Made by a program: the position numbers and the translations under genes. DNA of 64,000 nucleotides from Bacteroidota bacterium (GTDB lineage: Bacteria; Bacteroidota; Bacteroidia; UBA8524), in contig WBUH01000002.1 of assembly GCA_008933805.1 (NCBI GenBank), positions 27,443-91,442 of the forward strand. The letters are read 5' to 3'. Numbering within the stretch: the stretch's first letter is position 1; every line of letters starts with the position of its first letter. The notes under the pieces are model-generated. The model was not told where the DNA came from. It saw nothing but the letters and a program-made list of their open reading frames with translations, and did no database searches. This document shows positions 36,860 through 63,379 of this stretch, piece after piece.

Positions 36860-38588
36860 TTATTTTTTTATCAAGTTGTGCTGAGGGGTTTCCGCTTTGT
36901 TTAGCCTTGCGCCAATACTCAACGGCTTTGTCTTTGTTCCCCAGTTGGTAGTATACATCGCCCAAATGCTCTAAAATATCCCCATCGGTAGGAGAGAGGG
37001 CAAGGGCTTTTTCAATATAGGTTAAGGCTTCTTCGTACAGCGAGCTTTTGTATAGCACCCAGCCGTACGTATCTAAATAGGCAGCTTCGTTGGGTTTTAA
37101 TTCAACAGCCTTTTTTGCCATGCTCAACGCTTTTTCTAACTGTTGCTCTTGTTGCGAAAGGTAGTAGGCATAGTTGTTTAGCACGTATGCGTTGTTACCG
37201 TCAATAGCCAAGGCTGATTCAAGCGAGGCATAACACAACAGGTATTCTTGTAATTTATAGTAGGCATCGCCTGCAATGGTGTACAATCCCATATTAACAA
37301 AATTGTCACCTATTCCTAAATCAATACCAGCCTGTGCAGTCGATGCGGCCTTCTTGTAGTTTTTTTGTTGGTACGATGCGTTAGCATTGTAATAATACAG
37401 CACTACTCTGTTTGGAAATAACTCCAACGCCTTATCGCTCTCATCGTGCAAATTTTTATAGTCCCCTGCTTCTTCATAGCAAGCCAGTAATTGCTGCCAT
37501 ACTTTAAAGTTGTTGTTATCCAGCGTAAGGGTAATTTTATATTGCTCGGCAGCTTTTACGTATTGCTTATCACCAAATAGCAAATCAGCATATATAGCGT
37601 GCGATTGGGGTTGGTCGGGGTGCTTTTCTACAGCTATTTCAGCCAGTTCAAATACCTGTTTGCGGTATTCAAGGTTATTATCACCCAGCGGAGCCATCGA
37701 AAGGATAACGTCTATCTTATCCTTTAATGATACTTCCTTGTCTTTAAACGCAAGTTTCAGTTCGTTAATTACGTTGGCACTATCGCCTTCTTGTCGGTAT
37801 ATATTAGCTAAGCCAAAATGCGCACGGCCGTTTTCAGGTTCAATAGCTAATATTTTGTTGTAATACTCAAGGGCTTTATCCTTTTTGCCTATTACTACAT
37901 ACAATTCAGCCAGCATACCCAAGTAATCGGTATTTCCGGGTACACTGTTCACCAGTTTTTGTACTTCTTCAATAGCCTTTTCAGGCTTATTCATATAGAG
38001 ATACAAATCTTCTTTTTTGCGTACCACTTCTTCCGAAAGTCCGAAGCGGGCTTCCATTTTATCCAAAATGGCTATTGCATCGAGGGGTTTACTTGCCAAT
38101 ACCAATTGTTCGGCAGCATTATCGTAATGGTCGGCAGTTTCAGGCGAAAGTTCAATCAGTTGAATAAAAATGGCTGCTGCGTCGGCATTCTTGCGAAACG
38201 ATTTCAGCAGCAAGGCTTTTTCTTCAAGATACCACACATTTTTGGGTGAAAGCTCAATGGCCTTATCAAGATAAGGAAGCACACCCGGTTTGCGGGTTTG
38301 CATATAACACAGGTATAACTGGTAATACACATCGGCTACCTTTTGAGTGATTTTAAGGCATTGCTCAAAGTTTTGCGCAGCCTCTTCGTACCTGCCAAGC
38401 TGTTTGTCTTTATTACCTTCAAAAAACAAGGCATCAAAGCGCATTTTGTCAGCTTCGTTTGCAAACAAAGGACCACCCGAACCTGCAGGGGCTTTGCGGG
38501 TATTGCCCGTGCTTTTGGGGCTCTTGCACCCTGCGGCCACAAGTGCCGCCAGCATAAAGATGTATAGTATATGTATTGAGGGGCGCAA
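36837..38588 (-). CDS. TPR-repeat lipoprotein
   Basis: 583 aa, lipobox AAGC, with multiple 34-aa TPR-like repeats throughout. Confidence 0.65.
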   Translation of the reverse strand: MRPSIHILYIFMLAALVAAGCKSPKSTGNTRKAPAGSGGPLFANEADKMRFDALFFEGNKDKQLGRYEEAAQNFEQCLKITQKVADVYYQLYLCYMQTRKPGVLPYLDKAIELSPKNVWYLEEKALLLKSFRKNADAAAIFIQLIELSPETADHYDNAAEQLVLASKPLDAIAILDKMEARFGLSEEVVRKKEDLYLYMNKPEKAIEEVQKLVNSVPGNTDYLGMLAELYVVIGKKDKALEYYNKILAIEPENGRAHFGLANIYRQEGDSANVINELKLAFKDKEVSLKDKIDVILSMAPLGDNNLEYRKQVFELAEIAVEKHPDQPQSHAIYADLLFGDKQYVKAAEQYKITLTLDNNNFKVWQQLLACYEEAGDYKNLHDESDKALELFPNRVVLYYYNANASYQQKNYKKAASTAQAGIDLGIGDNFVNMGLYTIAGDAYYKLQEYLLCYASLESALAIDGNNAYVLNNYAYYLSQQEQQLEKALSMAKKAVELKPNEAAYLDTYGWVLYKSSLYEEALTYIEKALALSPTDGDILEHLGDVYYQLGNKDKAVEYWRKAKQSGNPSAQLDKKINEGKLSD

Positions 38589-38654
38589 AGCGTAAGTATT
38601 TTTAAGAAAACGTAATATTAATAAAAATGTTACGCAAAAGGTAAACAGCTAAAA

Positions 38655-39662
38655 CTATTCCATAACAGAATAGTCGCTGATACTCAAGTCGTCTTGCTTA
38701 CCTGTAAACGATGCGTAGCTGCCTATCATGCTGCCGGTAATGTTGGCGTTTTTGATAGAAGTATGTTTTTGTACGATAGAATTTGAAACTATCGAGTTCT
38801 CAACTTTGCAGCCATCGCCCAGCGAGGCGTAAGGGCCTACTACCGAGTTGGTAATGGTTACGTTATTGCCGATAAAGCAAGGGGGGATAATTTGCGCATT
38901 GGTAAGTGTAGCGTTGGGGTTGGGTTGGCTGTAACGCTCGCGTTCCAACTCAAGCACGCGCTCGTTGGTGTAAACGGTAGCGGCTTTGTTACCGCAATCC
39001 AACCATTCTTTTACAGTACCGGGGTGAAACTTAAGCCCTTTGTTTTTCATATTTTCCAGGGCGTTGGTAAGTTGGTATTCACCTTTGTCTTTAATATCGT
39101 TATCCAACAGGTGTTTTATCTCTGCTGATAGGTTGTCACCGTCTTTAAAGTAATAGATGCCAATAATAGCAAGGTCAGAAACAAACTCTTGAGGTTTCTC
39201 AACAAACTCGCTGATGTGGCCATCGGCAGCAATTTTCACCACCCCGAATTGTTTGGGGTCTTCAACCTTATTTACCCAAATCACTCCGTCTTTTCCTGCA
39301 TCCAATGTAAAATCGGCACGGAAAATAGTATCTGCAAAAGCAACAATAACATTACCGCGCAAGCAAGGCTCTGCACAATACACTGCATGGGCAGTTCCTA
39401 AAGCTTCGTCTTGGTAAAATATTTTACCTTTTGCACCAATGTTTTCAGCAATTTTCAGAAGGTTAGCTTCGGCCTCAGCGCCAAAATTCCTACCAATTAC
39501 AAAGGCTACTTCCTCAATTTTTTCATTGCACATAGCCGATAAATCGTGAACAAGGTGCTCAACTATAGGTTTACCTGCTACCGGAATAAGGGGTTTTGGG
39601 GTAGTTAGGGTGTGGGGTCTCATACGTTTGCCCATCCCTGCCATTGGTACTATAATATTCAT
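38655..39662 (-). CDS. Sugar-phosphate nucleotidyltransferase with C-terminal left-handed beta-helix (GlmU/GCD1-like)
   Basis: N-terminal MNIIVPMAGMGKRMRP...KPLIPVAGKPI nucleotidyltransferase motif. C-terminal hexapeptide-repeat region. Confidence 0.72.
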   Translation of the reverse strand: MNIIVPMAGMGKRMRPHTLTTPKPLIPVAGKPIVEHLVHDLSAMCNEKIEEVAFVIGRNFGAEAEANLLKIAENIGAKGKIFYQDEALGTAHAVYCAEPCLRGNVIVAFADTIFRADFTLDAGKDGVIWVNKVEDPKQFGVVKIAADGHISEFVEKPQEFVSDLAIIGIYYFKDGDNLSAEIKHLLDNDIKDKGEYQLTNALENMKNKGLKFHPGTVKEWLDCGNKAATVYTNERVLELERERYSQPNPNATLTNAQIIPPCFIGNNVTITNSVVGPYASLGDGCKVENSIVSNSIVQKHTSIKNANITGSMIGSYASFTGKQDDLSISDYSVME

Positions 39663-39702
39663 TAGGGTAATTGGTGTCTTTATATTCGTTAAACTAAATC
39701 TA

Positions 39703-40140
39703 CTACTTCACTCCTGTATGACCGAATCCGCCTGCGTTTCGTTCGGTTTCGGTAAGTGTTTCAACGGGTTGCCATTGTACAGTCTCGTGGCGGGCTATTA
39801 CCAGTTGGGCAATGCGTTCGCCATCATTAATTACAAAATCTTCGGATGATAGATTAACCAGTAATACCTTCACTTCGCCACGGTAATCCGCATCAATAGT
39901 GCCGGGACTGTTAAGCACGGTAATTCCGTTTTTATAGGCCAATCCGCTGCGGGGTCTCACTTGAGCCTCATAGCTTTGGGGCAATTCAATAAAAATACCT
40001 GTGCTTATTAGTTTCCTTTCAAGCGGCTTCAAGGTTTCGGGCCCTTCAAGGTTGGCTCTTAAATCCATGCCTGCCGACAATCCGGTTTGGTATTGTGGCA
40101 ATGGGTGGTGCGAACTGTTTACTATCTTAACCTCTATCAA
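39703..40140 (-). CDS. dut: dUTP diphosphatase
   Basis: 145 aa with dUTPase motifs: [36 protein letters not shown]. Confidence 0.9.
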
Positions 40141-40269
40141 AACTTTGTATTGTTTTGGCCTGCGAATTTAGCATTTTGAATGAAAAATGCCGTATTTATC
40201 TAATGGGATATTAAACCAAAAGCTATTGACAGTTGTTGTACTTTTGCACGCGTTTTTAAAAAATCAGGA

Positions 40270-41034
40270 ATGAATTTGTTTTATAAGCAGTATAGCCAAA
40301 CAGGCAAGCCTTTGTTTATTTTTCATGGGTTATTCGGGATGTTGGATAATTGGCACAACGTAGCCCAACAACTGGCTGCCGATTATGCCGTTTATACTGT
40401 TGATTTGCGCAACCACGGGCAATCGCCGCACAGTGATGAGATGAATTACAGTTTGATGGCTGACGATATTGCGCAATTACTGGTATCGCTTAAATACGAA
40501 AAGGCTCACATACTTGGGCACAGCATGGGGGGAAAAGCGGTGATGACGTTTGCGCTTAAATACCCTGCAATGATTGATAAACTGATTGTGGCCGATATAG
40601 GTGTGAAAGAATATAAGCGCGGCCACGATGATATTTTTGATGCTATTATTCCGCTGAAACTTGAAACGTTTGAAACCCGCGGCGATATTGACCGACACCT
40701 TACTCCACTATTGCCTGAGTTTAGTACCCGCCAGTTTATTCTTAAAAACCTTGCCCGCAATGCTGATGGCGGTTTTTATTGGAAAATGAACGTTGAGTCT
40801 ATCTATAAAAACTACGAAAATATAGTAGGGCCCATCAAGTCGGCCAAGCCGTATATGGGAGAAACAATGTTTTTGCGGGGAGGAAACTCGAAATACGTAA
40901 CCGATGAGGACTGGACTGATATTCAAACCCTTTTCCCCAACGCAAAACTAAGCACTATTGAAGGTGCCGGTCACTGGGTGCACGCTGAAAACCCTGCCGC
41001 AGTTGTTGCCTATGTGAAAGAGTTTTTGAGCTGA
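40270..41034 (+). CDS. Alpha/beta-fold hydrolase
   Basis: 254 aa. Nucleophile elbow GHSMGG. Oxyanion region HGLFG. Confidence 0.8.
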   Translation: MNLFYKQYSQTGKPLFIFHGLFGMLDNWHNVAQQLAADYAVYTVDLRNHGQSPHSDEMNYSLMADDIAQLLVSLKYEKAHILGHSMGGKAVMTFALKYPAMIDKLIVADIGVKEYKRGHDDIFDAIIPLKLETFETRGDIDRHLTPLLPEFSTRQFILKNLARNADGGFYWKMNVESIYKNYENIVGPIKSAKPYMGETMFLRGGNSKYVTDEDWTDIQTLFPNAKLSTIEGAGHWVHAENPAAVVAYVKEFLS

Positions 41035-41046
41035 TAAAATAGTTAC

Positions 41047-41145
41047 GACGGATTAAAATCCGTCGCTCCTAAGATTACAAAGCGTGGAGGGACTTAAGTC
41101 CCTCCACGCTTTGTAATTTTTACAGAATAGGATTTCAATCCTATT
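41047..41145. repeat. Three consecutive intergenic hairpins (family 1, family 2, plus one more)
   Basis: gacggattaaaatccgtc at 41047-41064. attacaaagcgtggaggGACTTAAGTCcctccacgctttgtaat at 41074-41117 (19-bp stem). aataggatttcaatcctatt at 41126-41145. Confidence 0.75.
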
Positions 41146-41281
41146 AAACACGACAGTCTTTACATTCTCCTTTCCTACGGAAAAAGAAATGTTATATTTC
41201 CGTTAACATTTGCAAAGTTGAGCCACCCTTTACAACTCAAAAAAGAATAAGCGCGTTTATCAAAGTACAATCGTCAAACCT

Positions 41282-44200
41282 ATGAAAAATCTCAAAGCAC
41301 TGCTGTGGGTTATCACGGCAATAGTAGCTGTTCCTTTTACAGTAAAGGGGCAAGCTCCCACTATTGAAGGCAGCGAATATTCATACTTGTACAAGCTTGA
41401 AAAAGAACAAGTACGCTGGATGCTCGACAGTGCTTGGCTAAGCGATAAAAGCCCCATACTAACGGCACCTGTAGATAGCTCATTACGCATCAACAACAGC
41501 AATCCGTTTGTGCCTAAGAAGCTGGCAAGAGGCTACTATTTATCCGCCTACGCTGCTGATTTAACCATTAATGCTCAGTTGCACATTCACCAACCGTTTT
41601 TTCCTACCATACAAGAAACCAACGGGGTGTGGTGGTTTGTGTTTAAAGATACCCTGCAAAGCATTGTGAAGGGCGGTACGCTTACCATGATTGGCAGCAA
41701 AGAGAAAGACAGTGTAATTGGTTACGATTCGTCGTGTATGTGCTATCCTGTGCCGCTGCAAAAGCAAGACCGCTGGTTTTTGTTTGAAAAGGGTACAGAG
41801 TTTTATTACCTGAAAGTATATTCTCCCTACAAAAAAGTAAAACGCGATTGTACCCGCCCATGGTGGAAATTTTGGAAAAAATGCCGCCCTGCATACAGCG
41901 ATTATAACAACTACAATTACAGATACCGCCCAAGAGGATGGCGCAGGTTATTAAACTGGGCATCGGATGTTTTTAGCCGCCCTGCAACCCCCATGCAGCT
42001 TAACCCGGGTTATATGGTGATTAACCAGCCTGAGTACAAACACTTTGATTCACTAAAGATGAAAGCTTTTATAGTGAACAAAAAGGGCAAGCCGCTTAAG
42101 AAGGATTTGTATGTAAAAATTACAACGCAGTCCAACTTCTACCAGCCGCTGCTATTCAAAAAAATATCGCCGGTTACACGGGGAGCTTATACGTTTGATA
42201 TGGCGATACCCGACAGTTTCCTGCTCGACCAAACGTATCTAATTTCTATTACCGATAAGTTGGGGAGAAGCTATAAATCAAGCCAATTTAAAGTAGCCGA
42301 TTACGAACTTAAAAAGGTGAGCTACAGTTGGGAAAACGGTTCGCCCGAATATTACCGAGGTAATGATATTGTTTTTTACGCTAAATCAGTTGATGCAAAC
42401 AACCTGCCCCTGCCCGATGCCACAGTGCGGTTACGATTGAGGATAGACCAAGTATTAGCTACATACGACACCTTGATAGCCTTGCGCGATAGTGTGTTTA
42501 CTTCGTGGTACGATACCCTGTTGGCGTGCAGCCCTGATGGGTTAACACCGATACACTTGCCGCAACACCTGTTGCCCAATGCTGATTTGAGAATTTTTGG
42601 TACCATGAATTTTACCAATGCAGATAACCAACCCGGTTTTGCACAATGGCAATTCAATATTCTAGCCGACTCTAAACGATTTTTTGTAAAAGAAGATAGT
42701 AACGGTTTAAGAGCAGGGTATGTAGTACAAGGCCGCATACAAAAAGAAATTCCGGCGTATTGGGTGGTTGAATATACTACAGGCGTTAGAACGGAAAAGA
42801 AAATCACTCTGCCGTATTACCAAGATTGGGAGCCCGGGGCTACATTGTATCGTTTGTTAGATTCAGGCAGACGCGAGATAAGCTCGATTGCTATGCCCCG
42901 CCAAATACCCAAACCGCCTGCATTTATCGTTACCAAAACTTACGACTCGCTGCACATTGATTTGCAAAACCCTTTGGGCATTGAGGTGGGTTGGCGCATC
43001 TTATCAGGCAAAAAGCTGATTGAAAAAGGTGCGGGTAACAGCCTATCGTACCATAAAAAACTAAAAGGCACTAAGCCTGTGTATGTGGCATATACCTACA
43101 CTTGGGGAGGCAATTTATTTACCTACGAAACCATTGCTTGGGTGAAGGAAAAACAGTTGACGGTGAAAATTGAACAACCCGAAGTTGTTTACCCCGGACA
43201 AGAAATTGCCGTTGATATTACGGTTACCGATTATAAAAACAGGGGTGCAAGTGGAGTGAATCTTACCGCATACAGCGTAAACATGGAGTTTGAGAACATT
43301 CCCTACCCACAAATGCCCTATTATGGTAAAAACTACGGCGGGCAGTTGGTTAAGAAGCCCATCAACAACATGAGTTTGTGGGAGAAAAGCTACAACTATA
43401 CGTTGCCCTGCAATCCGTATCTGTACAAATGGATGGGCTTGGCAAGCCATCCCTACTACCGTTTGATGTATAGCCCAACAGCATTGGGTATTTTAAAAGA
43501 CAGCCTATCCGACGGGAAAACCCAGTTAAGCCTGTTTGCAAGAAACTCAAACACCAACTACAAAAACTACTATGCTGCTTGGATTGACGATACCTTGGCG
43601 TATTTGAGCCTGAGCGGACAAGAACCCAATGCCTACCGAGTGAAACCCGGCAAGCACAAAATAACCTTGCGCACGTATGAGGGATTGTATGAAACAGATA
43701 GTATTGAATGCACGGCAGGAATGCGCACCCTTGTAGGGCTTAATACGGATAGTATTTATAACAACCGTACCATTAAACGTACTGAGATGTTGAAGGAGGT
43801 GAGAAAAGAAGAGTACGGGTTGTACCAGCCTCATGTATTGTACATCACCGGAGATAAAAACTCCATGTATGGAGATAATCTTTCAAGGGGATACCTAAGA
43901 CAGGGGGATAAAATTTACAACATCGGCAGGTTACAAAAATCATACACATACGGGCACAACGATAACCTTAAAAACAATCCGTACTACTTTTACAAAGTAG
44001 GGCCGTTTGAAAAGGGGTGGATAGATTTGATTATTGACCAACGGGTAATAACGTTCTTCTTTAATCCAGAGTATGTTTATACTTATTCAACAGTAGCGGT
44101 AATGTCGTCAGATGTGAATTACGACGACTTTAAACCGCAACCACTGCCCTCTTTCTACAGCTTTGCAGATACCGCTACCGAACTACCGCCGCCACCGCCC

Positions 44201-47200
44201 GAAGAGCCTAAAGTAAATATTATTCCAACTTACGCTTCAACCAATCCCTTGCAGCACCCCGGTATGCGTACCTATTACCACCCGTATTGGGTGGGCAAAG
44301 GTTGTTTTTATCGCGTATCCAATAGTAAAGATAACCGTATCATGAACTGGTGGTTTATTAATAACGACAGTCTCGAAATGTCGACCGTAGTAGCATGGCA
44401 AACAGGTGTTATAAACCCGCACTTAGTCCCCGGCAATTACGATATAGTAATGCTAACTGATACCAACAGTTTTAAACTGCTGCGCAATGTGCAGGTGCTG
44501 GATAGTTTTATTGTGTATTACAACCCCACCGACGAAGGCTTTATGAAATACGATACCCTTTTGATGTGGAGTTACCTTACCAAAATAAAACTTATAAACA
44601 GAGGGCCTGTACCCGAATATTACAACACCCCTGTGAAGTTAAAGGTAACTACTGATAATGAACCCGCTAAGGGGGCAGAAAAAGTAGTAGGTGAATTGAG
44701 TCTCAACAGCCGATACATAAGCAATGCCCTGATAGTGATTGAAGACGGTAAAGGCGGTTTTATAAACGGAGGGCTTACCAATCAGTTCGGGTTTTATCAA
44801 ATACCGCTGAAACCGGGAACGTATTATATGAAAATATTTACCCCTCAGTGGGATATGTTTCATGTAGAGAAACTTACGGTAACTGCAAAGAAAAATACCA
44901 TAGCCCACCTACACATTGGCAATTACAGCCCCGAAGTATTGGCAAGAAACTTTAACAATCTTCCCCGTTCACAAACCAGCGAAAAGCTAACCAATAACGG
45001 TACACAACCTAAGTATGAAAACACATCAACAGGAAACTGTTTTGGCAACAATTGCGGGGAAGTAAAGGGTATTATTTCCGACGCTGCAACGGGTGAACCT
45101 TTGGTAGGGGCAACAGTAATGATAGAAAGTAATAGCATAGCTACAGCTACCGGTATAGACGGTGATTACCGCATAAAAGGATTATCGGCAGGAACATACA
45201 CCCTTGTAGTGAGGTACGTAGGGTATCAAACCCAAAAGGTTATGAATGTGAATGTTGGTACCGGTGCAACTACTTTTTTAAACATTGAGTTAAGAGAGAA
45301 TGTTAGTGAAGTGGGTGAGGTGATTGTGACAGAAAGAGCAAGAATGCCCGTTGTTAAAGGCGATGAAATGAGTTACAATAGCGAAAGATATTATTCAGCT
45401 ACATCTCCGATGATGAATGAAAGTGTAACGACGATGGATGTTGTAACCACTACTTCAAAAAGCAAGAGAAGAAAAACATTAAACAGTCCTGATTTTAGTG
45501 ATGGTGAAGAACAAGGCTACGAAGAGGAATACAATCCTTTTAGGGGTAATGCCTTAGCCGATAGTACTGAAGTAAACTGGGTTGACAGGCAAAAAGAAGC
45601 ACAACGCCTGCAAGGAATGCTGGGGGATAGCAATGCCCTTTTGGTACGCAAAACCTTCCGCGATTACGGGTATTGGATACCCAATCTGCTTACTAACCGC
45701 AAGGGCAAAGCGGGCTTCACCGTAAAACTACCCGATAACCAAACCCAATGGAAATCATTTGTGCCAGCCATGGACGGTAAACGCCGTACGGGTTTGGGAA
45801 CAGCTACCATAAAAGCCTACAAGCCGTTAACGGCCAACCTTTCAGTACCCCGTGTAATGGTTGCAGGCGACCGCTTAGAGATTACAGGAAAAACAGTAAA
45901 CTATACATCAGACTCGGTAGTGGTGAATGCCTTGTTGCGTGTAAACGATAAAGATTTGTATAACAACCCGATGGGGTTGCGCTATTACCAACTGGTACAG
46001 CAGTTTTTAGAACCCATTAAGGCCGGAGAAACCGTAGTACAATACAGCATTAAGATGGACAACGGTTACCTTGACGGCGAAATACGCAATGTACCCGTGT
46101 TAGAAAACGGCTTATTGGTAAACAACGGCGAAAGTCAAACCCTTGACGGCAATTTAGAGCGTACCCTTTACCCCGAAGAGGGTTTTATCAACCGCGAGTT
46201 GATGGTGAGTAACCGAAAAGTGGTATTGCTGGAGGCAGAGTTGAATAAACTGCGCAACTATCAATACGGTTGTGTGGAGCAAACGGCATCAAAGCTAAAA
46301 GCCTTGTTGCTTGAAAAGCAGTTTGCAAAAGCACTGAACAAACCGTTTACGGATGAAAAAGAAATCAGCCAGTGCGTAAAACGCCTTGAAAAATTCCAAA
46401 ACACCGACGGATCATGGGGATGGTGGAGTCGCACCCTTACCGATTACTGGATGACAATTTATGCCACTGATGCACTGCAACGCGCCGTTAAAGCAGGGTA
46501 TAAAACACAAAGTGCGCTTACAGGAGCACAACATTTATGGGGTGTGTATCAATTTTTGGCCATCCCGCATAAAATCAATTCGTTAGAACTGTTTATTAAT
46601 GGCGGGTTTGGCTCGGTAGCTGATAAAATTGCAAAACTGGATACTCTTAACCTTAACCTGCAAGAACGTTATGCACTGATGAAAGCGAAACAAGCTTCGG
46701 GTATAAAAATTAATACCAAACCTTTGCTGGAAGCAGTGCGCTTACCTAATGAAAAACAGGCTGTGTGGGGCGAGAAAGTATTTAGTATTTCAGTAAACGA
46801 GTTGCAAACTTCTGCCGTTGTGTATGAAATTTTGAGAAAAGAAGGCGGCCATGATGAATTACTGAAAAAAGTGCGTAATTACTTCTTATCGCAGCCTCAT
46901 ACTTCAAGAAACACCATCGAGTCGGCCACCGTGTTGCAAACGTTTATGCAGGATATTGTTACAGAGGATAACAAACGCGAGGAGTTGATACCCGATTTCA
47001 GCATCAACGGAAAAGCAACCCCTTTACCCCTTGCCATGAAAATAGCTCCGGCTGATACTGTAAAGCTGGCTAAAAAGGGCAGTGAGTTGTTTTACGTGTA
47101 CTCGTGGCAACAATTTGAGGCCAATCCGGATGCTCGTACTCAAATATTTGATATACGGACTTCGTTTGAACAAAACAAACGCATGACAGATACTTTGCAG

Positions 47201-47518
47201 GTGGGTAAACCTGTTACCATGCACATCAGCATGACAATTGATAAAGAGCGTGAGTATGTGATGCTGGAAATACCTATCCCCGCAGGGTTTTCATACCAAA
47301 GCAAAACACCCGGTTATGCATACGAACAACACCGTGAACATTTTGACGACAAGGTGGCTATTTTCTTTGGCAAGTTGCCCCGCGGTTTGTATAGCTTTAA
47401 AGTAGAATTACTTCCTAAGTTTAAAGGACAAGTAACTTTATTACCTGCCCGTGCAGAAGAGATGTACTTCCCGCTTCACTTTGGCAACAACGCCAAACGC
47501 ACCATAGTGGTTGAATAG
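41282..47518 (+). CDS. Alpha-2-macroglobulin family giant protein (MG-domain/thioester type), secreted
   Basis: 2078 aa with a signal peptide. Thioester-type motif YQYGCVEQT (canonical CxEQ) about 450 aa from the C-terminus. Embedded carboxypeptidase-regulatory-like beta-sandwich (GIISDAATGEPLVGATVMIE...YTLVVRYVGYQTQ). Confidence 0.72.
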   Translation: MKNLKALLWVITAIVAVPFTVKGQAPTIEGSEYSYLYKLEKEQVRWMLDSAWLSDKSPILTAPVDSSLRINNSNPFVPKKLARGYYLSAYAADLTINAQLHIHQPFFPTIQETNGVWWFVFKDTLQSIVKGGTLTMIGSKEKDSVIGYDSSCMCYPVPLQKQDRWFLFEKGTEFYYLKVYSPYKKVKRDCTRPWWKFWKKCRPAYSDYNNYNYRYRPRGWRRLLNWASDVFSRPATPMQLNPGYMVINQPEYKHFDSLKMKAFIVNKKGKPLKKDLYVKITTQSNFYQPLLFKKISPVTRGAYTFDMAIPDSFLLDQTYLISITDKLGRSYKSSQFKVADYELKKVSYSWENGSPEYYRGNDIVFYAKSVDANNLPLPDATVRLRLRIDQVLATYDTLIALRDSVFTSWYDTLLACSPDGLTPIHLPQHLLPNADLRIFGTMNFTNADNQPGFAQWQFNILADSKRFFVKEDSNGLRAGYVVQGRIQKEIPAYWVVEYTTGVRTEKKITLPYYQDWEPGATLYRLLDSGRREISSIAMPRQIPKPPAFIVTKTYDSLHIDLQNPLGIEVGWRILSGKKLIEKGAGNSLSYHKKLKGTKPVYVAYTYTWGGNLFTYETIAWVKEKQLTVKIEQPEVVYPGQEIAVDITVTDYKNRGASGVNLTAYSVNMEFENIPYPQMPYYGKNYGGQLVKKPINNMSLWEKSYNYTLPCNPYLYKWMGLASHPYYRLMYSPTALGILKDSLSDGKTQLSLFARNSNTNYKNYYAAWIDDTLAYLSLSGQEPNAYRVKPGKHKITLRTYEGLYETDSIECTAGMRTLVGLNTDSIYNNRTIKRTEMLKEVRKEEYGLYQPHVLYITGDKNSMYGDNLSRGYLRQGDKIYNIGRLQKSYTYGHNDNLKNNPYYFYKVGPFEKGWIDLIIDQRVITFFFNPEYVYTYSTVAVMSSDVNYDDFKPQPLPSFYSFADTATELPPPPPEEPKVNIIPTYASTNPLQHPGMRTYYHPYWVGKGCFYRVSNSKDNRIMNWWFINNDSLEMSTVVAWQTGVINPHLVPGNYDIVMLTDTNSFKLLRNVQVLDSFIVYYNPTDEGFMKYDTLLMWSYLTKIKLINRGPVPEYYNTPVKLKVTTDNEPAKGAEKVVGELSLNSRYISNALIVIEDGKGGFINGGLTNQFGFYQIPLKPGTYYMKIFTPQWDMFHVEKLTVTAKKNTIAHLHIGNYSPEVLARNFNNLPRSQTSEKLTNNGTQPKYENTSTGNCFGNNCGEVKGIISDAATGEPLVGATVMIESNSIATATGIDGDYRIKGLSAGTYTLVVRYVGYQTQKVMNVNVGTGATTFLNIELRENVSEVGEVIVTERARMPVVKGDEMSYNSERYYSATSPMMNESVTTMDVVTTTSKSKRRKTLNSPDFSDGEEQGYEEEYNPFRGNALADSTEVNWVDRQKEAQRLQGMLGDSNALLVRKTFRDYGYWIPNLLTNRKGKAGFTVKLPDNQTQWKSFVPAMDGKRRTGLGTATIKAYKPLTANLSVPRVMVAGDRLEITGKTVNYTSDSVVVNALLRVNDKDLYNNPMGLRYYQLVQQFLEPIKAGETVVQYSIKMDNGYLDGEIRNVPVLENGLLVNNGESQTLDGNLERTLYPEEGFINRELMVSNRKVVLLEAELNKLRNYQYGCVEQTASKLKALLLEKQFAKALNKPFTDEKEISQCVKRLEKFQNTDGSWGWWSRTLTDYWMTIYATDALQRAVKAGYKTQSALTGAQHLWGVYQFLAIPHKINSLELFINGGFGSVADKIAKLDTLNLNLQERYALMKAKQASGIKINTKPLLEAVRLPNEKQAVWGEKVFSISVNELQTSAVVYEILRKEGGHDELLKKVRNYFLSQPHTSRNTIESATVLQTFMQDIVTEDNKREELIPDFSINGKATPLPLAMKIAPADTVKLAKKGSELFYVYSWQQFEANPDARTQIFDIRTSFEQNKRMTDTLQVGKPVTMHISMTIDKEREYVMLEIPIPAGFSYQSKTPGYAYEQHREHFDDKVAIFFGKLPRGLYSFKVELLPKFKGQVTLLPARAEEMYFPLHFGNNAKRTIVVE

Positions 47519-50662: not shown

Positions 50663-50872
50663 AAGTGGGACAGTTGTATGGCCCAGTTACGGTGTTATTT
50701 AGTTACGCGGTTATCGTGTTATTTTTGTTACGCACCGCGCAGGGGCTTGCGAAGTTCTACAAAGCAAAGGCAGTTTCAGGAGGTCAAAGAACTAGGCTGG
50801 ATAGTTTGTAATTGGAAACGGGTATAAATGAAGACTGGGCTTGCTCAAAAGTAAGGGGTTGAAAACTCTACT

Positions 50873-50926
50873 GTTACAATTACCTTTTTATGAAGGACTT
50901 AAGTCCTTCACAAAAAGGTAATTACA
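50873..50926. repeat. Family-2 hairpin element (TTACAA-stem-GACTTAAGTC-stem-TTGTAA)
   Basis: ttacaattacctttttatgaag GACTTAAGTC cttcacaaaaaggtaattacaa. Confidence 0.7.
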
Positions 50927-50986
50927 AAAGCGATAGGTTTTAACCTGTCGGGTTAGAAAAACACCGCAACACTCATATTTGATGCA

Positions 50987-53801: not shown

Positions 53802-55766
53802 TTACTCCCTCACAAACTTAGTAACACCCTTGTACCCGTTGCCTTGCACTTGAATAAAGTAAATACCTGCGGGCAAATCAGCGATAGGTAACGTATTAGT
53901 ACCATTTTCAATGGCAAAGGTACGTACCACTTGTCCCACAAGGTTCATAAGGCTGCCCTTAAGAGCAGGGCCGTTAAAGCCGGCGGGAGCAATGGTAAGT
54001 TCAGTTGTAGCAGGGTTGGGGTACACAGCCAGTTGCAAGTTCGTTTCAGCCAATTGGTCTATCCCCGCGGGGAAGGTAATATCCGTACTGTCAAACATCC
54101 CTTGGCTCAAATTATAATACGTACCCGATGGAGTAGTCTCCTTTTTCACCGCACGCACCATATATACGTTGTGGCCTTGCAAAGGGTCATTGTCAACAAA
54201 GCTAGTACCGTTTACCAACGTAAGATTGACCTTCACATACTTGCCGTACAAATGCGGGGCGCGGTACACGTGGTAGCCCACCACATTAGCATCGGTAGAG
54301 GCCGTCCAGCTTACCGTTACCTTTTTTGTACCCGTTTCAACAGCGTCAATAGTAGTAGGGGCTAACGCTACGTGCATACGCAGGGTAGGGTCGCCCATCA
54401 GCGCAATGTGTATCAAGCGTTGCGAGCCGTTAAAGTTTCCTTCATACAATGTGCCGTTTTCGTTTTGGGTAAGTCGCGCACCGTATCCGATACATTCGCC
54501 CAATGCCATGTGGTGCAATGCCCAGTTGGGAATACCGCCCCAAAAACTTGCCAGTATCGAAGGTTTTGAAGCCAATGCAGCACGCAACAAAGCATCTTGG
54601 ATGTCCCAATCGCCAAAATAACTGCCTGCCAGCGAGGTGAAAATGGTTTTAATGCTATCCGCAGCAAACTGTGCGGTGTTGATTACTCCGCCGCAAGACG
54701 AGTACCAACCGCCGCCGCAAGCCCCGCTCCATAAATACCAGTCTTTTTTCAAATCAGCATTGTAGTCAACGCCGTTGTTCACATTGTCTACAATGTTTGC
54801 AGAGCCCACCATGGGCGCAAAGTTTCGCCAGTTTGACGAAGCAATTGTAAACGATTGAAAATTATCGTCAATCAACGCCCTTGCAGGGGCAGTAAGCTGT
54901 CCAATGCGGTAGCTGTGGTTTTTTTGCAGGTAGTAACGCAGCAACGCCGTATCACTTTGTCCCGCAAAAGCAGGCAAGCGAGAAAGGTCAACGCGGCCTA
55001 CCATTAAATCCACATCGCTATCAAACTGGCTGGCATCAAACTTACCATCACCGGGTTGGTTTTTATTCTCAGCCCTTGATGCCGACGAAGTACTTACAAT
55101 ATTATCCGTCCACAAACCATCTACATCACCGTAATACCCGTCGCAAGGCCAAGCCCCCGAATGGTCGGGGTGTCCGTCAGGGTATATACTCCCTGAATAG
55201 GGGACAGGTACTCTTCCCAACAGAAACACGGCTTTCACATTAGGTACAGTCTTTATTTTATCCCTAACCGCCGTAACTGCATCGGTACGTTCAGTGATAA
55301 TGCGTTGCACTTGCCAGCCGTCACCAATCAAATCTTTTTCAAGCATGGCAATTTCGGTGGCCAGCGGTTGCAAATAATTATTATCAATCACAAGCGCAAG
55401 CGTGCCGTGCTGTTCTTCGACAGCATGGTTTATACCGGCATACACACTGCCCAGTGCGCCCGTGCTTCCGCCTTCTTTAAATACCAAATACTCGTAGGCT
55501 TGACCCACGGTAACCGCATTATCGGTATAAGTACTGTCGCCCGTGCCAAGGTTAGCATACACATTGCCCCAGTCCTTATCTTCCTTCGCTTTTCTAAACA
55601 CCCGTATGCGGGTAGCATCAGTAAACTTTGGAAATTTAAGGGTAATAGCAGCCGGACTTTCGCTTACCGTTGCCGTAACCAACACCGAACGGTTTTTATT
55701 GAATTGTGCCGTTACAGCCGTTGAAACAAGAAATAGAAGTGAGGTAACGAGTAGAGTTTTTTTCAT
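53802..55766 (-). CDS. T9SS C-terminal-sorting-domain secreted protein of unknown function (possibly a cysteine-peptidase-like or adhesin-like cargo)
   Basis: Start trimmed to MKKTLLVTSLLFLVSTAVTAQ (signal peptide). The track's N-terminal extension to 55946 runs into the hairpin cluster. The C-terminus is LAVYPNPATTELTI...GIYFIQVQGNGYKGVTKFVRE, a type-A T9SS sorting domain. The Cys-containing central region is unassigned. Confidence 0.55.
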   Translation of the reverse strand: MKKTLLVTSLLFLVSTAVTAQFNKNRSVLVTATVSESPAAITLKFPKFTDATRIRVFRKAKEDKDWGNVYANLGTGDSTYTDNAVTVGQAYEYLVFKEGGSTGALGSVYAGINHAVEEQHGTLALVIDNNYLQPLATEIAMLEKDLIGDGWQVQRIITERTDAVTAVRDKIKTVPNVKAVFLLGRVPVPYSGSIYPDGHPDHSGAWPCDGYYGDVDGLWTDNIVSTSSASRAENKNQPGDGKFDASQFDSDVDLMVGRVDLSRLPAFAGQSDTALLRYYLQKNHSYRIGQLTAPARALIDDNFQSFTIASSNWRNFAPMVGSANIVDNVNNGVDYNADLKKDWYLWSGACGGGWYSSCGGVINTAQFAADSIKTIFTSLAGSYFGDWDIQDALLRAALASKPSILASFWGGIPNWALHHMALGECIGYGARLTQNENGTLYEGNFNGSQRLIHIALMGDPTLRMHVALAPTTIDAVETGTKKVTVSWTASTDANVVGYHVYRAPHLYGKYVKVNLTLVNGTSFVDNDPLQGHNVYMVRAVKKETTPSGTYYNLSQGMFDSTDITFPAGIDQLAETNLQLAVYPNPATTELTIAPAGFNGPALKGSLMNLVGQVVRTFAIENGTNTLPIADLPAGIYFIQVQGNGYKGVTKFVRE

Positions 55767-55844
55767 CAATTGTATAATTGGCTTTAAGAAGCAAGTTATA
55801 TAATTTAGAATAAAAACGGTGTGGCAAACATCATCAACGCAATA

Positions 55845-56181
55845 GCAGCAGGTTTTATACCTGCTGTGATGTGAGGATACAACAGCGACGGGTTTTACAC
55901 CCGTCGGCAAGAATGGTTTCATACCCTTTGCAAAACGGGTTCTCAATAGCGACGGGTTTCATACCCGTCGTAATAGGTAGGATAACAACGATGGGTTTTA
56001 CACCCATCGGTCAGAAAAGGTTTCATTCCCGCCATTAATACCCTGAATATAAAATTCAGGTCTTTTATGTGTAACGTTCCGAATGGTCTTAAACCATTCG
56101 GAACGAATCATTGCAAAACAGCGACGGGTTTTATACCCGTCGTAATAGGAGGGATAATAACGATGGGTTTTATACCCATCG
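55845..56181. repeat. Cluster of 8 family-1 hairpin repeats (GG-TTTYAHA-CC loop core with covarying stems), BIME-like
   Basis: gcagcaggttttatacctgctg. cgacgggttttacacccgtcg. cgacgggtttcatacccgtcg. cgatgggttttacacccatcg. ctgaatataaaattcag. cgttccgaatggtcttaaaccattcggaacg. cgacgggttttatacccgtcg. cgatgggttttatacccatcg. A ~55-bp doublet (gacggg hairpin, taatagg-gggataa spacer, gatggg hairpin) occurs twice. Confidence 0.85.
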
Positions 56182-60683: not shown

Positions 60684-61928
60684 ATGGATTTATTTGAGAA
60701 GATAGCAGGTAAGCCCGGTCCGCTGGGCATGTGGTCCGAAGGGGCCGAAGGGTATTATATGTTCCCAAAACTTGAAGGCGAAATCAGTAGCCGCATGATT
60801 TTTAGGGGCAAAACCAAACTTATTTGGAGCTTAAATAACTACTTGGGGCTGGCCAACCACCCCGAAGTGCGCAAAGCCGATGCGGACGCCGCTGCACAAT
60901 TCGGTATGGCCTACCCGATGGGTGCCCGCATGATGAGCGGTAACAGCAACTACCACGAGCAATTGGAGCGTGAGCTTGCAAGCTTTGTAGGGTACGATGA
61001 TGCCATATTGCTAAACTACGGCTACCAAGGTATGGTAAGTGCCATTGACACTTTGGTTGACCGCCACGACGTAATTGTGTACGATGCTGAAAGCCACGCT
61101 TGTATTATCGACGGGGTGCGCCTGCACATGGGCAAACGTTTTGTGTACAACCACAACGATATGGACAGCCTTGAAACCCAGTTGAAACGCGCTACCCGTG
61201 TAGCTGCTGAAAACAACGGAGGTATATTGGTGATTACTGAAGGTGTGTTTGGAATGAGCGGTGCGCAAGGCAACATAAAAGGCATAGTAGCACTGAAAGA
61301 AAAATACAACTTCCGTTTGTTTGTGGATGACGCACACGGTTTCGGCACAATGGGTAAAACCGGCGCAGGGATAGGAGAGGAGCAAGACGTAACCAACGGT
61401 ATCGATATTTATTTCGGAACCTTTGCTAAGAGCATGGCAGGTATCGGTGCATTTATAGGCGGTAACAAAATGGTTGTAAAACACCTGCGCTATAATATGC
61501 GTTCGCAAATATTTGCCAAAAGTTTGCCCATGCCAATGGTTATCGGTGCTTTGAAACGCCTAGAACTGTTGCGCAGCCAACCCGAACACAAAGAGAAACT
61601 GTGGACGATAGTAAACGCATTGCAAAACGGCTTACGTGAACGTGGCTTTAATATTGGTGTAACCTCATCGCCCGTTACCCCCGTAATATTAAACGGAACC
61701 ATACCCGAAGCCACTGCACTTACCCACGATTTACGTGAGAACTACGATATTTTCTGCTCAATAGTAGTATATCCTGTAGTACCCAAAGGAGTTATTTTAT
61801 TACGCTTGATACCTACTGCTGCACACAGCCTTGCTGATGTAGAAGAAACGTTGAAAGCCTTTAGCGAAGTGAAAGAAAAACTGGCGCAAGGCGTTTACAA
61901 CGTCGATAAACTGGTAGCAGTGTACTAA
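60684..61928 (+). CDS. Alpha-oxoamine synthase family PLP enzyme (serine-palmitoyltransferase / 8-amino-7-oxononanoate-synthase-like; candidate sphingolipid or sulfonolipid acyltransferase)
   Basis: 414 aa, class II aminotransferase fold. Matching regions: SLNNYLGLANHP, DDAHGFG, GTFAKSMAG (PLP-Lys region). Confidence 0.8.
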   Translation: MDLFEKIAGKPGPLGMWSEGAEGYYMFPKLEGEISSRMIFRGKTKLIWSLNNYLGLANHPEVRKADADAAAQFGMAYPMGARMMSGNSNYHEQLERELASFVGYDDAILLNYGYQGMVSAIDTLVDRHDVIVYDAESHACIIDGVRLHMGKRFVYNHNDMDSLETQLKRATRVAAENNGGILVITEGVFGMSGAQGNIKGIVALKEKYNFRLFVDDAHGFGTMGKTGAGIGEEQDVTNGIDIYFGTFAKSMAGIGAFIGGNKMVVKHLRYNMRSQIFAKSLPMPMVIGALKRLELLRSQPEHKEKLWTIVNALQNGLRERGFNIGVTSSPVTPVILNGTIPEATALTHDLRENYDIFCSIVVYPVVPKGVILLRLIPTAAHSLADVEETLKAFSEVKEKLAQGVYNVDKLVAVY

Positions 61929-61968
61929 TAGGTATTCCCCCCCAATTTTATAATAAAAAGCCGAAGGC

Positions 61969-62318
61969 AGACTTAAGTCTGCCTTCGGCTTTTTAACTGT
62001 ATAAGCAGCTAACGTTGCGAATGGTTTTAAACCATTCGCAACGAACCCTTGCAAAAGAGACGGGCTTTATGCCCGTCGGGGGTTGGACGGAATAAAGCCC
62101 ATTGTTATTTTGGGTTTAAAAACCCCACTATTACAATTACCAATCGAGAGATGACTTAAGTCCTCTCTCGCATTGTAATCACAAAAGAGACGGATTTTAA
62201 TCCGTCGCAGCAAAAAATACCCTTGCGCTTTAAAAACAACAGATTAAAACCTGTTGAACCGACTGATACAAAACGTTGTCTTGCGTTAAGACATTCCGAA
62301 TGATTTTAAACCATTTGG
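61969..62318. repeat. Intergenic cluster mixing both hairpin families (about 7 hairpins), starting with a bidirectional terminator
   Basis: aaaaagccgaaggcaGACTTAAGTCtgccttcggcttttt at 61965-62005. gcgaatggttttaaaccattcgc at 62037-62059. gacgggctttatgcccgtc at 62079-62097. gggtttaaaaaccc. ttacaattaccaatcgagagatGACTTAAGTCctctctcgcattgtaat at 62151-62199. gacggattttaatccgtc at 62209-62226. ccgaatgattttaaaccatttgg at 62296-62318. Confidence 0.8.
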
Positions 62319-62515: not shown

Positions 62516-63379
62516 GTGAAACAACACATAAAGCAGTACTTTCAATTCAGCAGGCGTGAGCGCAACGGCATATTTGTACTGCTCTTTGTATTAATAGCAC
62601 TAATAATAGTAAGTTTCACCGTACCCCTTTGGGTAGGGACAGATAGGGAAGAGGCAAAGCAACAATTTGAGCAGAACGCCCTTGAACTTAAACAACTGGC
62701 TAATGAACAAGCTACAACCCAACAAAGTTTACTTAAACCCTTCAACCCCAATACCTATAGCTTAGATTCTTTAATGGCCTGCGGTATTCCTAAAAAGCTT
62801 GCTGCACAAATCATCAACTACCGCCAAAAAGTAGGACCGTTTGCCACCAAAGCCGATTTTGCCAAACTGTATAACCTCACCGATAGCTTATACAAAGTGT
62901 ACTTACCGTTTTTGGTATTACCGGATGCAGAAACATCTAAAAGTGAAAAACCAGCCTCACGTGGGTTGGTTGAAATAAACACTGCCGACTCATTGCAGCT
63001 ACTGGCGGTAAAAGGTATCGGCCCTTATTTTGCCCACAAAATCCTGCAATACCGTAATCAACTAGGGGGCTACTATAGTCTTAGCCAATTGGGAGAAGCC
63101 TTTACCATTCCCGTAGCCTCGCTGGCCGAAAAGCAACAACGCATGGATGAAATCAAAGCGCAGCTAACGGTAAATATTTCTCGTATCAAAAAAATAAATA
63201 TTAACACAGCTACCCAAAAGCAGCTGTCCGCACATCCGTATATCAGCTATAAGCAGTCTTCGGCAATACCCAAATACATTGCCCGCTATGGCAAAATAAA
63301 AAGCCTTGACGATTTAACAGTGTTGGGCATCATTACTACCCGCGATGCAGTTCTGCTAAAACATTATGTATCGTTTTAG
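62516..63379 (+). CDS. ComEA-like helix-hairpin-helix DNA-binding protein, membrane-anchored
   Basis: 287 aa with an N-terminal TM segment. Two HhH units: INTADSLQLLAVKGIGPYFAHKIL and INTATQKQLSAHPYISYKQS. Confidence 0.7.
   Translation: MKQHIKQYFQFSRRERNGIFVLLFVLIALIIVSFTVPLWVGTDREEAKQQFEQNALELKQLANEQATTQQSLLKPFNPNTYSLDSLMACGIPKKLAAQIINYRQKVGPFATKADFAKLYNLTDSLYKVYLPFLVLPDAETSKSEKPASRGLVEINTADSLQLLAVKGIGPYFAHKILQYRNQLGGYYSLSQLGEAFTIPVASLAEKQQRMDEIKAQLTVNISRIKKININTATQKQLSAHPYISYKQSSAIPKYIARYGKIKSLDDLTVLGIITTRDAVLLKHYVSF

Follow-up and report, generated by a model that had tools for sequence, protein, structure and literature searches.

The decamer GACTTAAGTC occurs four times in a 64,000-nucleotide stretch of a Bacteroidota genome (GenBank assembly GCA_008933805.1, contig WBUH01000002.1, positions 27,443 to 91,442; hereafter, the window) and in every case forms the tip of a long palindrome. 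The sequences suggest that this palindrome, which we term the C hairpin, is the centre of an extragenic, non-autonomous element of approximately 99 bp that resembles repetitive extragenic palindromic (REP) sequences, bacterial interspersed mosaic elements (BIMEs), and REP doublets forming hairpins (REPINs), and that has a cognate IS200-like Y1 transposase; we assign this reading a probability of roughly 0.7. It draws on the architecture of the unit and its fixed register, its copy number, its position just past stop codons, the lack of target-site duplications, the Watson-Crick compensation of its stems, and the physical association of two transposase paralogs with one repeat type each.

Architecture, distribution, and covariation of the composite

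The four exact matches of GACTTAAGTC in the window (at 41091, 50896, 61970, and 62153) compare with a mean of 0.03 in dinucleotide-preserving shuffles, none of 100 of which reached four, and a hairpin scan of the window placed the core at the tip of a long palindrome in all four cases. A first-pass annotation of this DNA had described four copies at hairpin tips and had quoted their stem sequences correctly. It had not recorded two additional small hairpins that flank the C palindrome on both sides in a fixed register.

The architecture was read from 170 nt on each side of 24 copies, with the left and right halves placed in one orientation. The unit is dyad-symmetric and consists, in order, of an A hairpin, a linker, the C palindrome, the inverted linker, and an inverted A hairpin (A′). 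The A hairpin has a variable outer stem of 4–6 bp and a tip of the form GGRTT-(G/A)A-AAYCC, the loop reading TC or TT in A′, and the 8-nt linker between A and C is of few types (CTGTTAAA, CTCTTTA, CTTTTGCA, and CTNTTAAG). The C palindrome follows the pattern ATTAC(A/C)A-N10-GACTTAAGTC-N10′-T(G/T)GTAAT; nearly all true copies are 44 nt long and read ATTACAA-N10-GACTTAAGTC-N10′-TTGTAAT, and a few have N9. In a logo of 82 half-units (tttt..a..GG.TT.AAA.CC..t.cT.TT.aA, then ATTACAA), the conserved positions are the hairpin tips, YT.TT in the linker, and ATTAC, and the distance from the A tip to ATTAC is constant (13–24 nt). The composites are 92–104 bp long (median 99), and paralogous copies are homologous only as far as the outer A hairpins. 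The A stems of a unit differ from one another, are each internally compensated, and covary as well. Of 30 copies, 21 had no direct repeat at the composite ends, and the others had repeats of 1–2 nt or, in one case, 5 nt; a DDE-type element or classical miniature inverted-repeat transposable element was ruled out by this lack of target-site duplications.

We scanned 185,579 species genomes with the strict two-flank pattern TTACAA-N6–22-GACTTAAGTC-N6–22-TTGTAA, for which, by our own estimate, about 20 chance matches are expected in 596 Gb. Among the 40 loci returned, 31 are true palindromes from four metagenome-assembled genomes (MAGs) and one is from CAZOZL01; the remaining eight are scattered, non-palindromic, chance matches. 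The pattern was matched 6–10 times in each of the four MAGs: 10 times in JAMIFM01, at 7 loci with 8 copies in CALRQL02, 7 times in JBBKVO01, and 6 times in OZ252261.1, which is a complete 3.81-Mb chromosome. Under the strict pattern, the family is restricted to a small clade of uncultured Bacteroidia. The four genomes are labelled 'Bacteroidia bacterium' except CALRQL02, which is mislabelled. The fetched 8-kb loci also contain copies with relaxed bases (ATTACC, ATTACAG, ATTACTG, and ATTATC), approximately three for each strict copy, and the strict pattern therefore recovers only about one quarter of the members, as judged from copies free of ascertainment bias. A copy number of a few dozen per genome is reasonable as an estimate, reached indirectly through the strict pattern.

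The window has 42% G+C and encodes proteins sorted by the type IX secretion system (T9SS; Por_Secre_tail), which marks it as Bacteroidota. An 8-kb contig of CALRQL02 (L141) is 93% identical to window positions 38096–46079 and carries the same first copy, which indicates that the window comes from a sister species of CALRQL02. The label of that MAG, 'Agrobacterium sp. 719_389', looks wrong (contigs L141, L128, L132, and L136; 43% G+C) and is doubtful because of this identity with a T9SS-bearing Bacteroidota sequence. The label 'uncultured Burkholderiales' of the CAZOZL01 contig L151, which has 37% G+C and a canonical composite, looks wrong as well.

Genome-specific variants were observed: GGACTTAAGTCC with the arm AGCGAAGCGG is prevalent in JAMIFM and CALRQL, and CGACTTAAGTCG with the arm ..AAGGAC in JBBKVO and OZ252261. 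A covariance-model search of 366 kb gave no new members with a diverged core, and the only core variants, GACCTAAGTC and GAACTTAAGTCC, belong to copies that adjoin a transposase gene (tnpA). A scan of the window at the Rfam gathering thresholds returned tRNA-Cys alone and no known RNA family at the hairpins.

Covariation was counted on the 20-bp C helix in 38 aligned copies. Paired cells amounted to 98.1%, compared with 76.9% in shuffles and 35–46% in slid controls, and 12 of the 20 base pairs showed changes on both sides; there were 150 double-change cells versus 36 in shuffles, and only two single-side changes. These results confirm the earlier statement that the mid-stem differs among copies yet remains self-complementary. 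The stems had also been called completely different; they are divergent, but all are versions of one ancestor with the purine-rich 5′ arm consensus AGCGAAGGAG. The covariation itself is real but is not of the usual RNA type, G-U pairs occupying 2 of 755 cells. Pairing that is exclusively Watson-Crick is identical on both strands and hence is not what a constraint on RNA alone usually leaves; it would fit a DNA hairpin in single-stranded DNA, a cruciform, or the copying of one arm from the other.

Orthologous copies are kept between species at 79–93% identity (L128/L129, L127/L150, L147/L148, and window/L141). Between L128b and L129a, the C stem has three double changes, all fully compensated, within flanks that are about 88% identical; several compensated changes separate L147 from L148, among them the loss of one base from both arms. 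A fresh uncompensated change was found in each of L129b, copy 4 of the window, and two L001 copies. The comparisons would fit a slow, roughly neutral drift of the mid-stem with a rapid return of complementarity, either by selection of foldable copies or by templated correction from arm to arm, between which the data do not separate. Two inverted composites of JAMIFM that lie 6.7 kb apart (L129:400–520 and 7080–7200) have an identical chimeric A hairpin, ACAGGATTAAAACCCCATT, and their CALRQL orthologues (L128:990–1110 and 7690–7810) have two different, well-paired A hairpins; the chimeric hairpin common to both JAMIFM copies points to conversion between these nearby inverted copies.

All 42 copies are intergenic by crude open reading frame (ORF) calls: 21 lie between tandem genes, 11 between convergent genes, 5 between divergent genes, and 5 at a locus edge, against a background of 179 tandem, 52 convergent, and 53 divergent gene pairs in the same loci. 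In most copies, a stop codon lies approximately 31–56 nt from C, which places the outer hairpin approximately 5–15 nt past the stop. This amounts to a strong preference of the family for the 3′ ends of genes, as REP elements are known to have. The copies might, alternatively, be host RNA signals, that is, bidirectional terminators or stabilisers of 3′ untranslated regions that evolved in place, with an incidental link to the transposase. The position just past the stop, the enrichment between convergent genes (11/37 versus 52/284), the A5 and T5 flanks of the third window copy, the T-rich linkers past the small hairpins, and a few terminator-like phage hairpins with the same tip (see below) agree with this explanation. 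A terminator scan flagged some of the A hairpins and D hairpins (described below) that have T-rich linkers and left the C hairpins unflagged. Among the window copies, the third alone has a U-run (T5), and canonical copies end in TTGTAAT and a linker. The three-hairpin homology over approximately 99 bp, with conserved linkers and a fixed register, implies a common origin rather than repeated evolution in place, and the near absence of G-U pairs also weighs against an RNA signal. In addition, composites are also found upstream of the tnpA start, each transposase paralog has its own composite type, and five copies lie in apparently divergent intergenic regions. Independently evolved terminators are weakened as a candidate by the shared architecture and by the terminator scans, and we consider this explanation very unlikely.

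An even less probable explanation, to which we give hardly any credence, is that GACTTAAGTC is a restriction-modification or nicking target, as the first-pass annotation had suggested, or a double-stranded site for a dimeric host protein. In its favour, the core is perfectly palindromic and includes the AflII-type hexamer CTTAAG, and many other 6-bp palindromes are strongly avoided in the window: AGATCT, CCTAGG, CTCGAG, GCATGC, and CGCGCG are absent and GACGTC, GAGCTC, GCTAGC, and GGATCC occur once each, with 5–20 expected, while TTGCAA and TGCGCA, among others, are over-represented 2–3-fold. This pattern suggests a heavy restriction-modification pressure in the lineage. CTTAAG, however, was observed 13 times against 19.9 expected (ratio 0.65), which is mid-range among 6-bp palindromes, several of which have ratios of 0–0.1, and 9 of the 13 sites lie outside the elements; a restriction-modification target was rejected on the strength of these statistics, which cover the window. 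Conservation also extends to the ATTAC/GTAAT base 10 bp away and to the two flanking hairpins, and a double-stranded binding site would not need self-complementary 10-bp spacers.

Linkage of the composites to Y1 transposase genes

Two JBBKVO contigs, L145 and L155, have in common a 557-bp segment (90% identity by local BLAST) that comprises a C composite and an ORF of 142 amino acids. The ORF at L145:7341–7769 matched the Pfam family Y1_Tnp (PF01797; E = 2.5e-29), and its product passed the NCBIfam model transpos_IS200 with 84.3 bits (cutoff 55). The closest solved structures are the TnpA proteins of ISDra2 and IS608, with which the protein aligns at an intact HUH motif (DHVHLL) and at the tyrosine helix (SYIQNQQQHH); the tyrosine motif is of the type Y---Q--HH, without NP. 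The first-pass annotation had named, as an outcome contrary to its own reading, that the copies might be the repeats of a single mobile element, and this is essentially what the comparisons point to, in the form of a repeat partner of a Y1 transposase.

The related proteins form two groups, TnpA-1 (66–95% identity) and TnpA-2 (60–64% identity). A composite lies upstream of the tnpA start at all six TnpA-1 loci; it is complete at L145, L155, L244, and L246 and consists of C-A′ only at L245 and L249–251, where the contig starts inside C. A composite is also present downstream of tnpA at L155, L244, and L246. The upstream composites of L244 and L246 (JAMIFM) have the variant cores GACCTAAGTC and GAACTTAAGTCC, respectively. 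At L145, the gene is intact, with a composite 46 nt upstream of its start and none on the right-hand side, and L249 also has no right-hand composite. At L155 (1673–2098), the gene is a pseudogene with an in-frame TGA in place of a Trp codon, is 92% identical to the L145 gene, lies between two convergent genes, and has A-C-A′ composites on both sides in direct orientation. The linkage between C and TnpA-1 is not due to chance, because C occurs approximately once per 20–40 kb and yet lies within approximately 150 nt of nearly every TnpA-1 flank. Independent short-read contigs were observed to break inside the C palindrome beside tnpA (positions 1–15 of L249, L250, and L251, positions 1–16 of L245, and the end of L244).

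JAMIFM has a second paralog, P0006 (TnpA-2; L247/L248), with a composite of the form A*-B-D on both sides. The TnpA-2 relatives at L252, L253/L254, L164, and L165, which are from other sources, likewise have their own three-hairpin composites on both sides. In the central palindrome of the TnpA-2 type, the base is conserved, the mid-stem varies, and the tip reads GGGTTT-T-AAACCC or GGGATTT-T-AAATCCC; in L247, a D hairpin follows it. Thus, one genome contains two paralogous enzymes, each amid its own repeat type.

Each protein cluster is found on 1–3 contigs. TnpA-1 adjoins clpB in two genomes, in three genomes TnpA-2 adjoins an Endonuclease_1/T9SS gene together with a Peptidase_S49 gene, and no tnpB gene was found near tnpA at the loci examined. 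The low copy number and the apparent vertical inheritance match REP-associated tyrosine transposases (RAYTs) rather than insertion sequences (ISs), with the exception of JBBKVO. These observations bear on a further explanation, in which the composites are the ends of an active IS200-type IS and the solitary ones are solo remnants, similar to palindrome-associated transposable elements (PATEs), instead of a REP population. In agreement with it, the enzyme scores above the cutoff of the curated IS200 model, the composites on either side of tnpA are in direct orientation in the manner of left-end and right-end hairpins, JBBKVO contains two units of composite and tnpA at 90% identity, the gene of one being a pseudogene, and HUH elements are expected to leave no target-site duplications. 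An active IS is, on the other hand, at odds with a single- or low-copy gene in conserved synteny across species, with the loci that have no right-hand composite, with solitary composites that outnumber tnpA by at least 10:1 within JAMIFM, and with the absence of tnpB nearby. In addition, the Y---Q--HH subclass has been described without IS properties (Quentin et al. 2018, PMC6006769). We therefore regard the IS explanation as unlikely, although it is the strongest of the three alternatives considered.

More distant relatives from metagenomes (35–44% identity) were tabulated, and 63 of 66 carry Y...Q..HH; the other three are one with Y...Q..HH in an ORF that leaves the contig and two broken ORFs. 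Many of these genes have the hairpin NNNNGGNTT-TC-AANCCNNNN upstream and, downstream, an inverted counterpart whose loop is GA or AA. L169 (42% identity) has three-hairpin units on both sides with the central hairpin CCCCGACTTAAGTCGGGG, and the flanks of L166 contain TTTCGGACTT-C-AAGTCCGAAA. Because the flanks of distant relatives carry the GACTT/AAGTC tip, this tip is older than the clade with the ATTACAA base. Multi-hairpin flanks may be general for the Y---Q--HH enzyme subclass. Downstream of distant Y---Q--HH genes, we also observed tandem arrays of two alternating hairpin types (L173:4430–4640 and L166:4400–4630 and 5080–5370), for example CCGTGGGTT-GA-AACCCACGG with ATCCCT-AA-AGGGAT, and ATAGCGAATTTATTCGCTAT repeated at a spacing of approximately 60 nt.

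Proposed mechanism and relation to known systems

In the proposed mechanism, the element would fold into three hairpins when it is single-stranded, for example in the lagging-strand template. A TnpA dimer would recognise the tips and feet of these hairpins (GGRTT-GA-AAYCC on A and ATTAC...GACTTAAGTC...GTAAT on C) and would cut and rejoin nearby single-stranded DNA, as the TnpA proteins of IS608 and ISDra2 and the E. coli TnpA-REP do. Such cleavage and rejoining could generate, move, or maintain copies. The mid-stems would need only to pair and would be free to drift, and complementarity would be regained since foldable copies alone stay substrates, or by intrastrand template switching that copies an arm, or by both. 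Either restoration route would explain why double changes dominate and G-T pairs are nearly absent. Quasipalindrome template switching is a mechanism known from E. coli genetics. A secondary role of the copies as transcript 3′-end hairpins, either terminators or stabilisers, is plausible, and probable from their location at the 3′ ends of genes.

Several observations weigh against a REP-like element with a cognate transposase. We infer the catalytic relation between the enzyme and the repeat from sequence data, and the estimate of the copy number is indirect. The 142-residue protein failed the NCBIfam model REP_Tyr_transpos (RayT), with 34.1 bits against a cutoff of 80, and the unpaired GTAG/CGTC tetranucleotide was not found at the hairpin feet of the 82 half-units, in which only a weak T-run lies outside A; the system is thus an analogue of REP/RAYT and not a member of it. 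The two tnpA copies of JBBKVO, one of them a pseudogene, are more IS-like than domesticated. By tblastn, no tnpA was detected in the window, and among the 8-kb loci the gene was found at L145 and L155 only. The hairpins nearest to tnpA, A and A′, are inverted relative to each other, which does not fit a simple single-strand excision of the IS608 type, and no empty site or insertion polymorphism was found in four orthologous locus pairs (five copy comparisons). Finally, the position past stop codons could reflect a host function, as a terminator or stabiliser, that alone maintains the structure.

The closest described system is REP/BIME/REPIN with RAYT (Nunvar 2010; Bertels and Rainey 2011; Di Nocera 2013, PMC3733652). 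The composites resemble it in being extragenic palindromes present in tens to hundreds of copies, mostly at gene 3′ ends, and in forming inverted doublets or mosaics of several hairpin types. Further likenesses are a low-copy Y1/HUH gene in a fixed chromosomal place flanked by its own repeats (a REPtron), several families per genome with one enzyme each, and vertical inheritance with genome-specific 'master' variants. The GTAG/CGTC tag of that system is, in contrast, missing from the Bacteroidia composites. The unit here is a dyad-symmetric, three-hairpin structure of approximately 99 bp around a long centre that is perfectly palindromic, the enzyme is an IS200-like Y---Q--HH protein of 142 amino acids without the class-2 Y---NP motif, and the hosts are Bacteroidia, whereas those of REP/RAYT are Gammaproteobacteria (E. 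coli, Pseudomonas, and Stenotrophomonas).

In regards to the enzyme, TnpA-Y1 subclass 1.2 lies near IS200, has the Y---Q--HH motif, and is found, at low copy number, in members of Bacteroidetes and Cyanobacteria (Quentin et al. 2018, BMC Genomics 19:475, PMC6006769). No repeat partner and no IS properties were reported for it, and REPtron-like arrangements were reported for class-2 subclasses only (PMC6006769). A comparison of signatures showed that our enzyme fits this subclass (Y-IQN-Q-QQ-HH, 142 amino acids, 1–3 contigs per cluster, and Bacteroidia MAGs), with which it has in common the Y---Q--HH motif, the HUH motif DH(V/I)H, a short IS200-like protein, and the low copy number. It differs in that multi-hairpin composites flank the gene and also occur scattered through the genome, and in that relatives at 35–64% identity are flanked by hairpins too. 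In the literature searched, we found no paper with the motif in this context and none that connects dispersed repeats with subclass 1.2 or with IS200-like genes of Bacteroidetes.

The transposase fold, the catalytic motifs, the hairpins at both ends of tnpA, and the lack of both target-site duplications and terminal inverted repeats in the DDE sense are similar to those of the IS200/IS605 family (IS200, IS608, and ISDra2) and PATEs. In IS200, a perfect palindrome near the left end acts as a transcription terminator. In contrast to that family, tnpA is not multi-copy here, lies in conserved synteny, and is without tnpB, the hairpins nearest to it are mutually inverted, and the dispersed unit is one symmetric composite rather than a left end joined to a right end. 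The attC sites of integrons are comparable in their conserved outer and inner boxes around a variable self-complementary middle and in their recognition as folded single-stranded DNA, which for the composites is proposed. They are, however, recombined by the tyrosine recombinase IntI rather than an HUH enzyme, and no cassette array is present here; moreover, attC is imperfect, with required extrahelical bases, whereas the C palindromes are near-perfect.

Among transposases that persist with their miniature repeats as long-term residents of the chromosome, REP/RAYT is the best-studied system, and almost all of its examples are from Proteobacteria and have Y---NP enzymes. The results indicate a REP-type lifestyle among uncultured Bacteroidia in which the enzyme comes from the IS200 side. 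If the proposed partnership holds, the orphan genes of subclass 1.2 would gain a concrete substrate of three defined hairpins in a fixed geometry, and the system would be a second example of the domestication of such transposases. More tentatively, the whole Y---Q--HH subclass 1.2 might represent a second, independent domestication of the REP type that serves lineage-specific composites across several phyla, the palindrome being kept perfect by hairpin-templated copying of one arm while single-stranded DNA is processed, rather than by selection on RNA; we hold this wider reading to be possible rather than probable. If true, the elements would be a natural read-out of quasipalindrome template switching, and their exclusively Watson-Crick covariation provides a clean data set on how palindromes stay perfect. 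For annotation, composites of this kind fill long intergenic regions, break short-read assemblies, and may mimic small RNAs, terminators, or restriction-modification sites.

Copies in the window and neighbouring repeat modules

The first composite (41046–41145) is complete and canonical. It begins with the A hairpin CGACGGATT-AA-AATCCGTCG (41046–41065), which is connected by the linker CTCCTAAG to the C palindrome ATTACAA-AGCGTGGAGG-GACTTAAGTC-CCTCCACGCT-TTGTAAT (41074–41117; perfect, 22+22), and ends, after the linker TTTTACAG, with the A′ hairpin AATAGGATT-TC-AATCCTATT (41126–41145). As single-stranded DNA, it folds into exactly three hairpins (–37.5 kcal/mol, z = –12.5), and it scored 71 bits with the covariance model. 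It begins 11 nt past the stop of an alpha/beta-hydrolase gene (40270–41034), an alpha-2-macroglobulin-like gene (41282–47518) starts 136 nt beyond it, and it is kept in the sister-species contig L141.

The second composite (50854–50950), within an extended intergenic region, comprises a degenerate A hairpin (approximately 50854–50869), the linker ACTGTTACA, the C palindrome ATTACC-TTTTTATGAAG-GACTTAAGTC-CTTCACAAAAA-GGTAAT (50879–50922; one mismatch, with the inner part at 50891–50910 perfect), the linker TACAAAAG, and the A′ hairpin CGATAGGTT-TT-AACCTGTCG (50931–50950; one mismatch). Its covariance-model score was 54 bits, and its ATTACC/GGTAAT base was seen in L129 and L246 too. The fourth composite (62112–62206) is decaying. 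It has the A hairpin GGGTTT-AA-AAACCC (62112–62125) and a linker, the imperfect C palindrome ATTACCAATCGAGAGAT-GACTTAAGTC-CTCTCTCGCATTGTAAT (62136–62179), the linker CACAAAAGA, and the A′ hairpin GACGGATT-TT-AATCCGTC (62189–62206), and scored 46 bits. The defects of its C palindrome are a T:C mismatch adjoining the core and an indel in the right base, and the counterpart in the sister strain (L001), ATACCAATCGAGGGAG-GACTTAAGTC-CTCTCTCGATTGGTAAT, points to an ancestral palindrome of 17+10+17. Copies 2 and 4 are thus complete units in decay. The TTACAA...TTGTAA flanks ascribed to three copies by the first-pass annotation are the true stem base of copy 1, but the base of copies 2 and 4 is ATTACC...GGTAAT, decayed in copy 4 as judged by the L001 contig. 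What had been read as a TTACAAT flank in copies 2 and 4 is part of the preceding linker (CTGTTACA/CTATTACA), and the right flank of copy 2 reads TTACAA in the sequence and not TTGTAA.

Copy 3 (61954–61995) is the perfect 21+21 palindrome GCCGAAGGCA-GACTTAAGTC-TGCCTTCGGC, which has the C-type tip and arm, is without the ATTAC base and the A hairpins, and carries A5 and T5 flanks in their place. The spans given here for copies 3 and 4 replace displaced coordinates of the earlier description. Copy 3 begins 25 nt past the stop of an aminotransferase gene (60684–61928), scored 43–45 bits with the covariance model, and is kept in L001 with one uncompensated change. It had been placed between convergent genes and taken as evidence for bidirectional termination by at least some copies; both neighbours, the aminotransferase gene and an HHH_3/ComEA-like gene (62516–63379), are in fact on the plus strand. 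The sole minus-strand ORF nearby (61800–62054; 84 amino acids, TTG start) overlaps the aminotransferase gene and the hairpin. The argument was thus based on a mis-called gene pair, and canonical copies, as described above, have no T-run and were not flagged by the terminator scan. Copy 3 by itself looks like an intrinsic terminator, and may be a relative of the family in reduced form or, alternatively, a terminator of independent origin with the same tip.

A search of viral contigs with a one-flank pattern gave, among the matches listed, only chance matches, including a few unrelated terminator-like hairpins with the tip. These phage hairpins (L025:3571, L061:491, L038:9643, L121:662, and L064:3124) have GACTTAAGTC at the tip and an A-run and a T-run, and are without the ATTAC base and without flanking hairpins. 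They indicate that the tip can arise or be used outside the family, which bears on the origin of copy 3.

Between copies 3 and 4, the window contains two hairpins outside the GACTTAAGTC family, the B palindrome CGTTGCGAATGGTTT-T-AAACCATTCGCAACG (62013–62043) and the D hairpin GACGGGC-TTTAT-GCCCGTC (62059–62077). The B module has a variable stem and the tip GAATGGTTT-N-AAACCATTC and occurs in the window at 62013–62043 and 56075–56105. A B-like and D arrangement flanks P0006 on both sides in L247/L248 (L247:1050–1210 and 1640–1760), and since this type forms the flanks of the second TnpA paralog, the window holds members of two repeat systems. The modules occur in varied order and orientation within shared intergenic regions, as a BIME-like mosaic.

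A further array of six small hairpins was observed at 55846–56181, in which CGACGGGT-TTYAY-ACCCGTCG alternates with CGATGGGT-...-ACCCATCG, the linker is TAATAGG(A/T)GGGATAA(C/T)AA, and the B-type palindrome at 56075–56105 is enclosed. Two of its hairpins lie inside the ORF at 53802–55946, the TTG start of which was probably called too far upstream. This array may represent a third repeat family.

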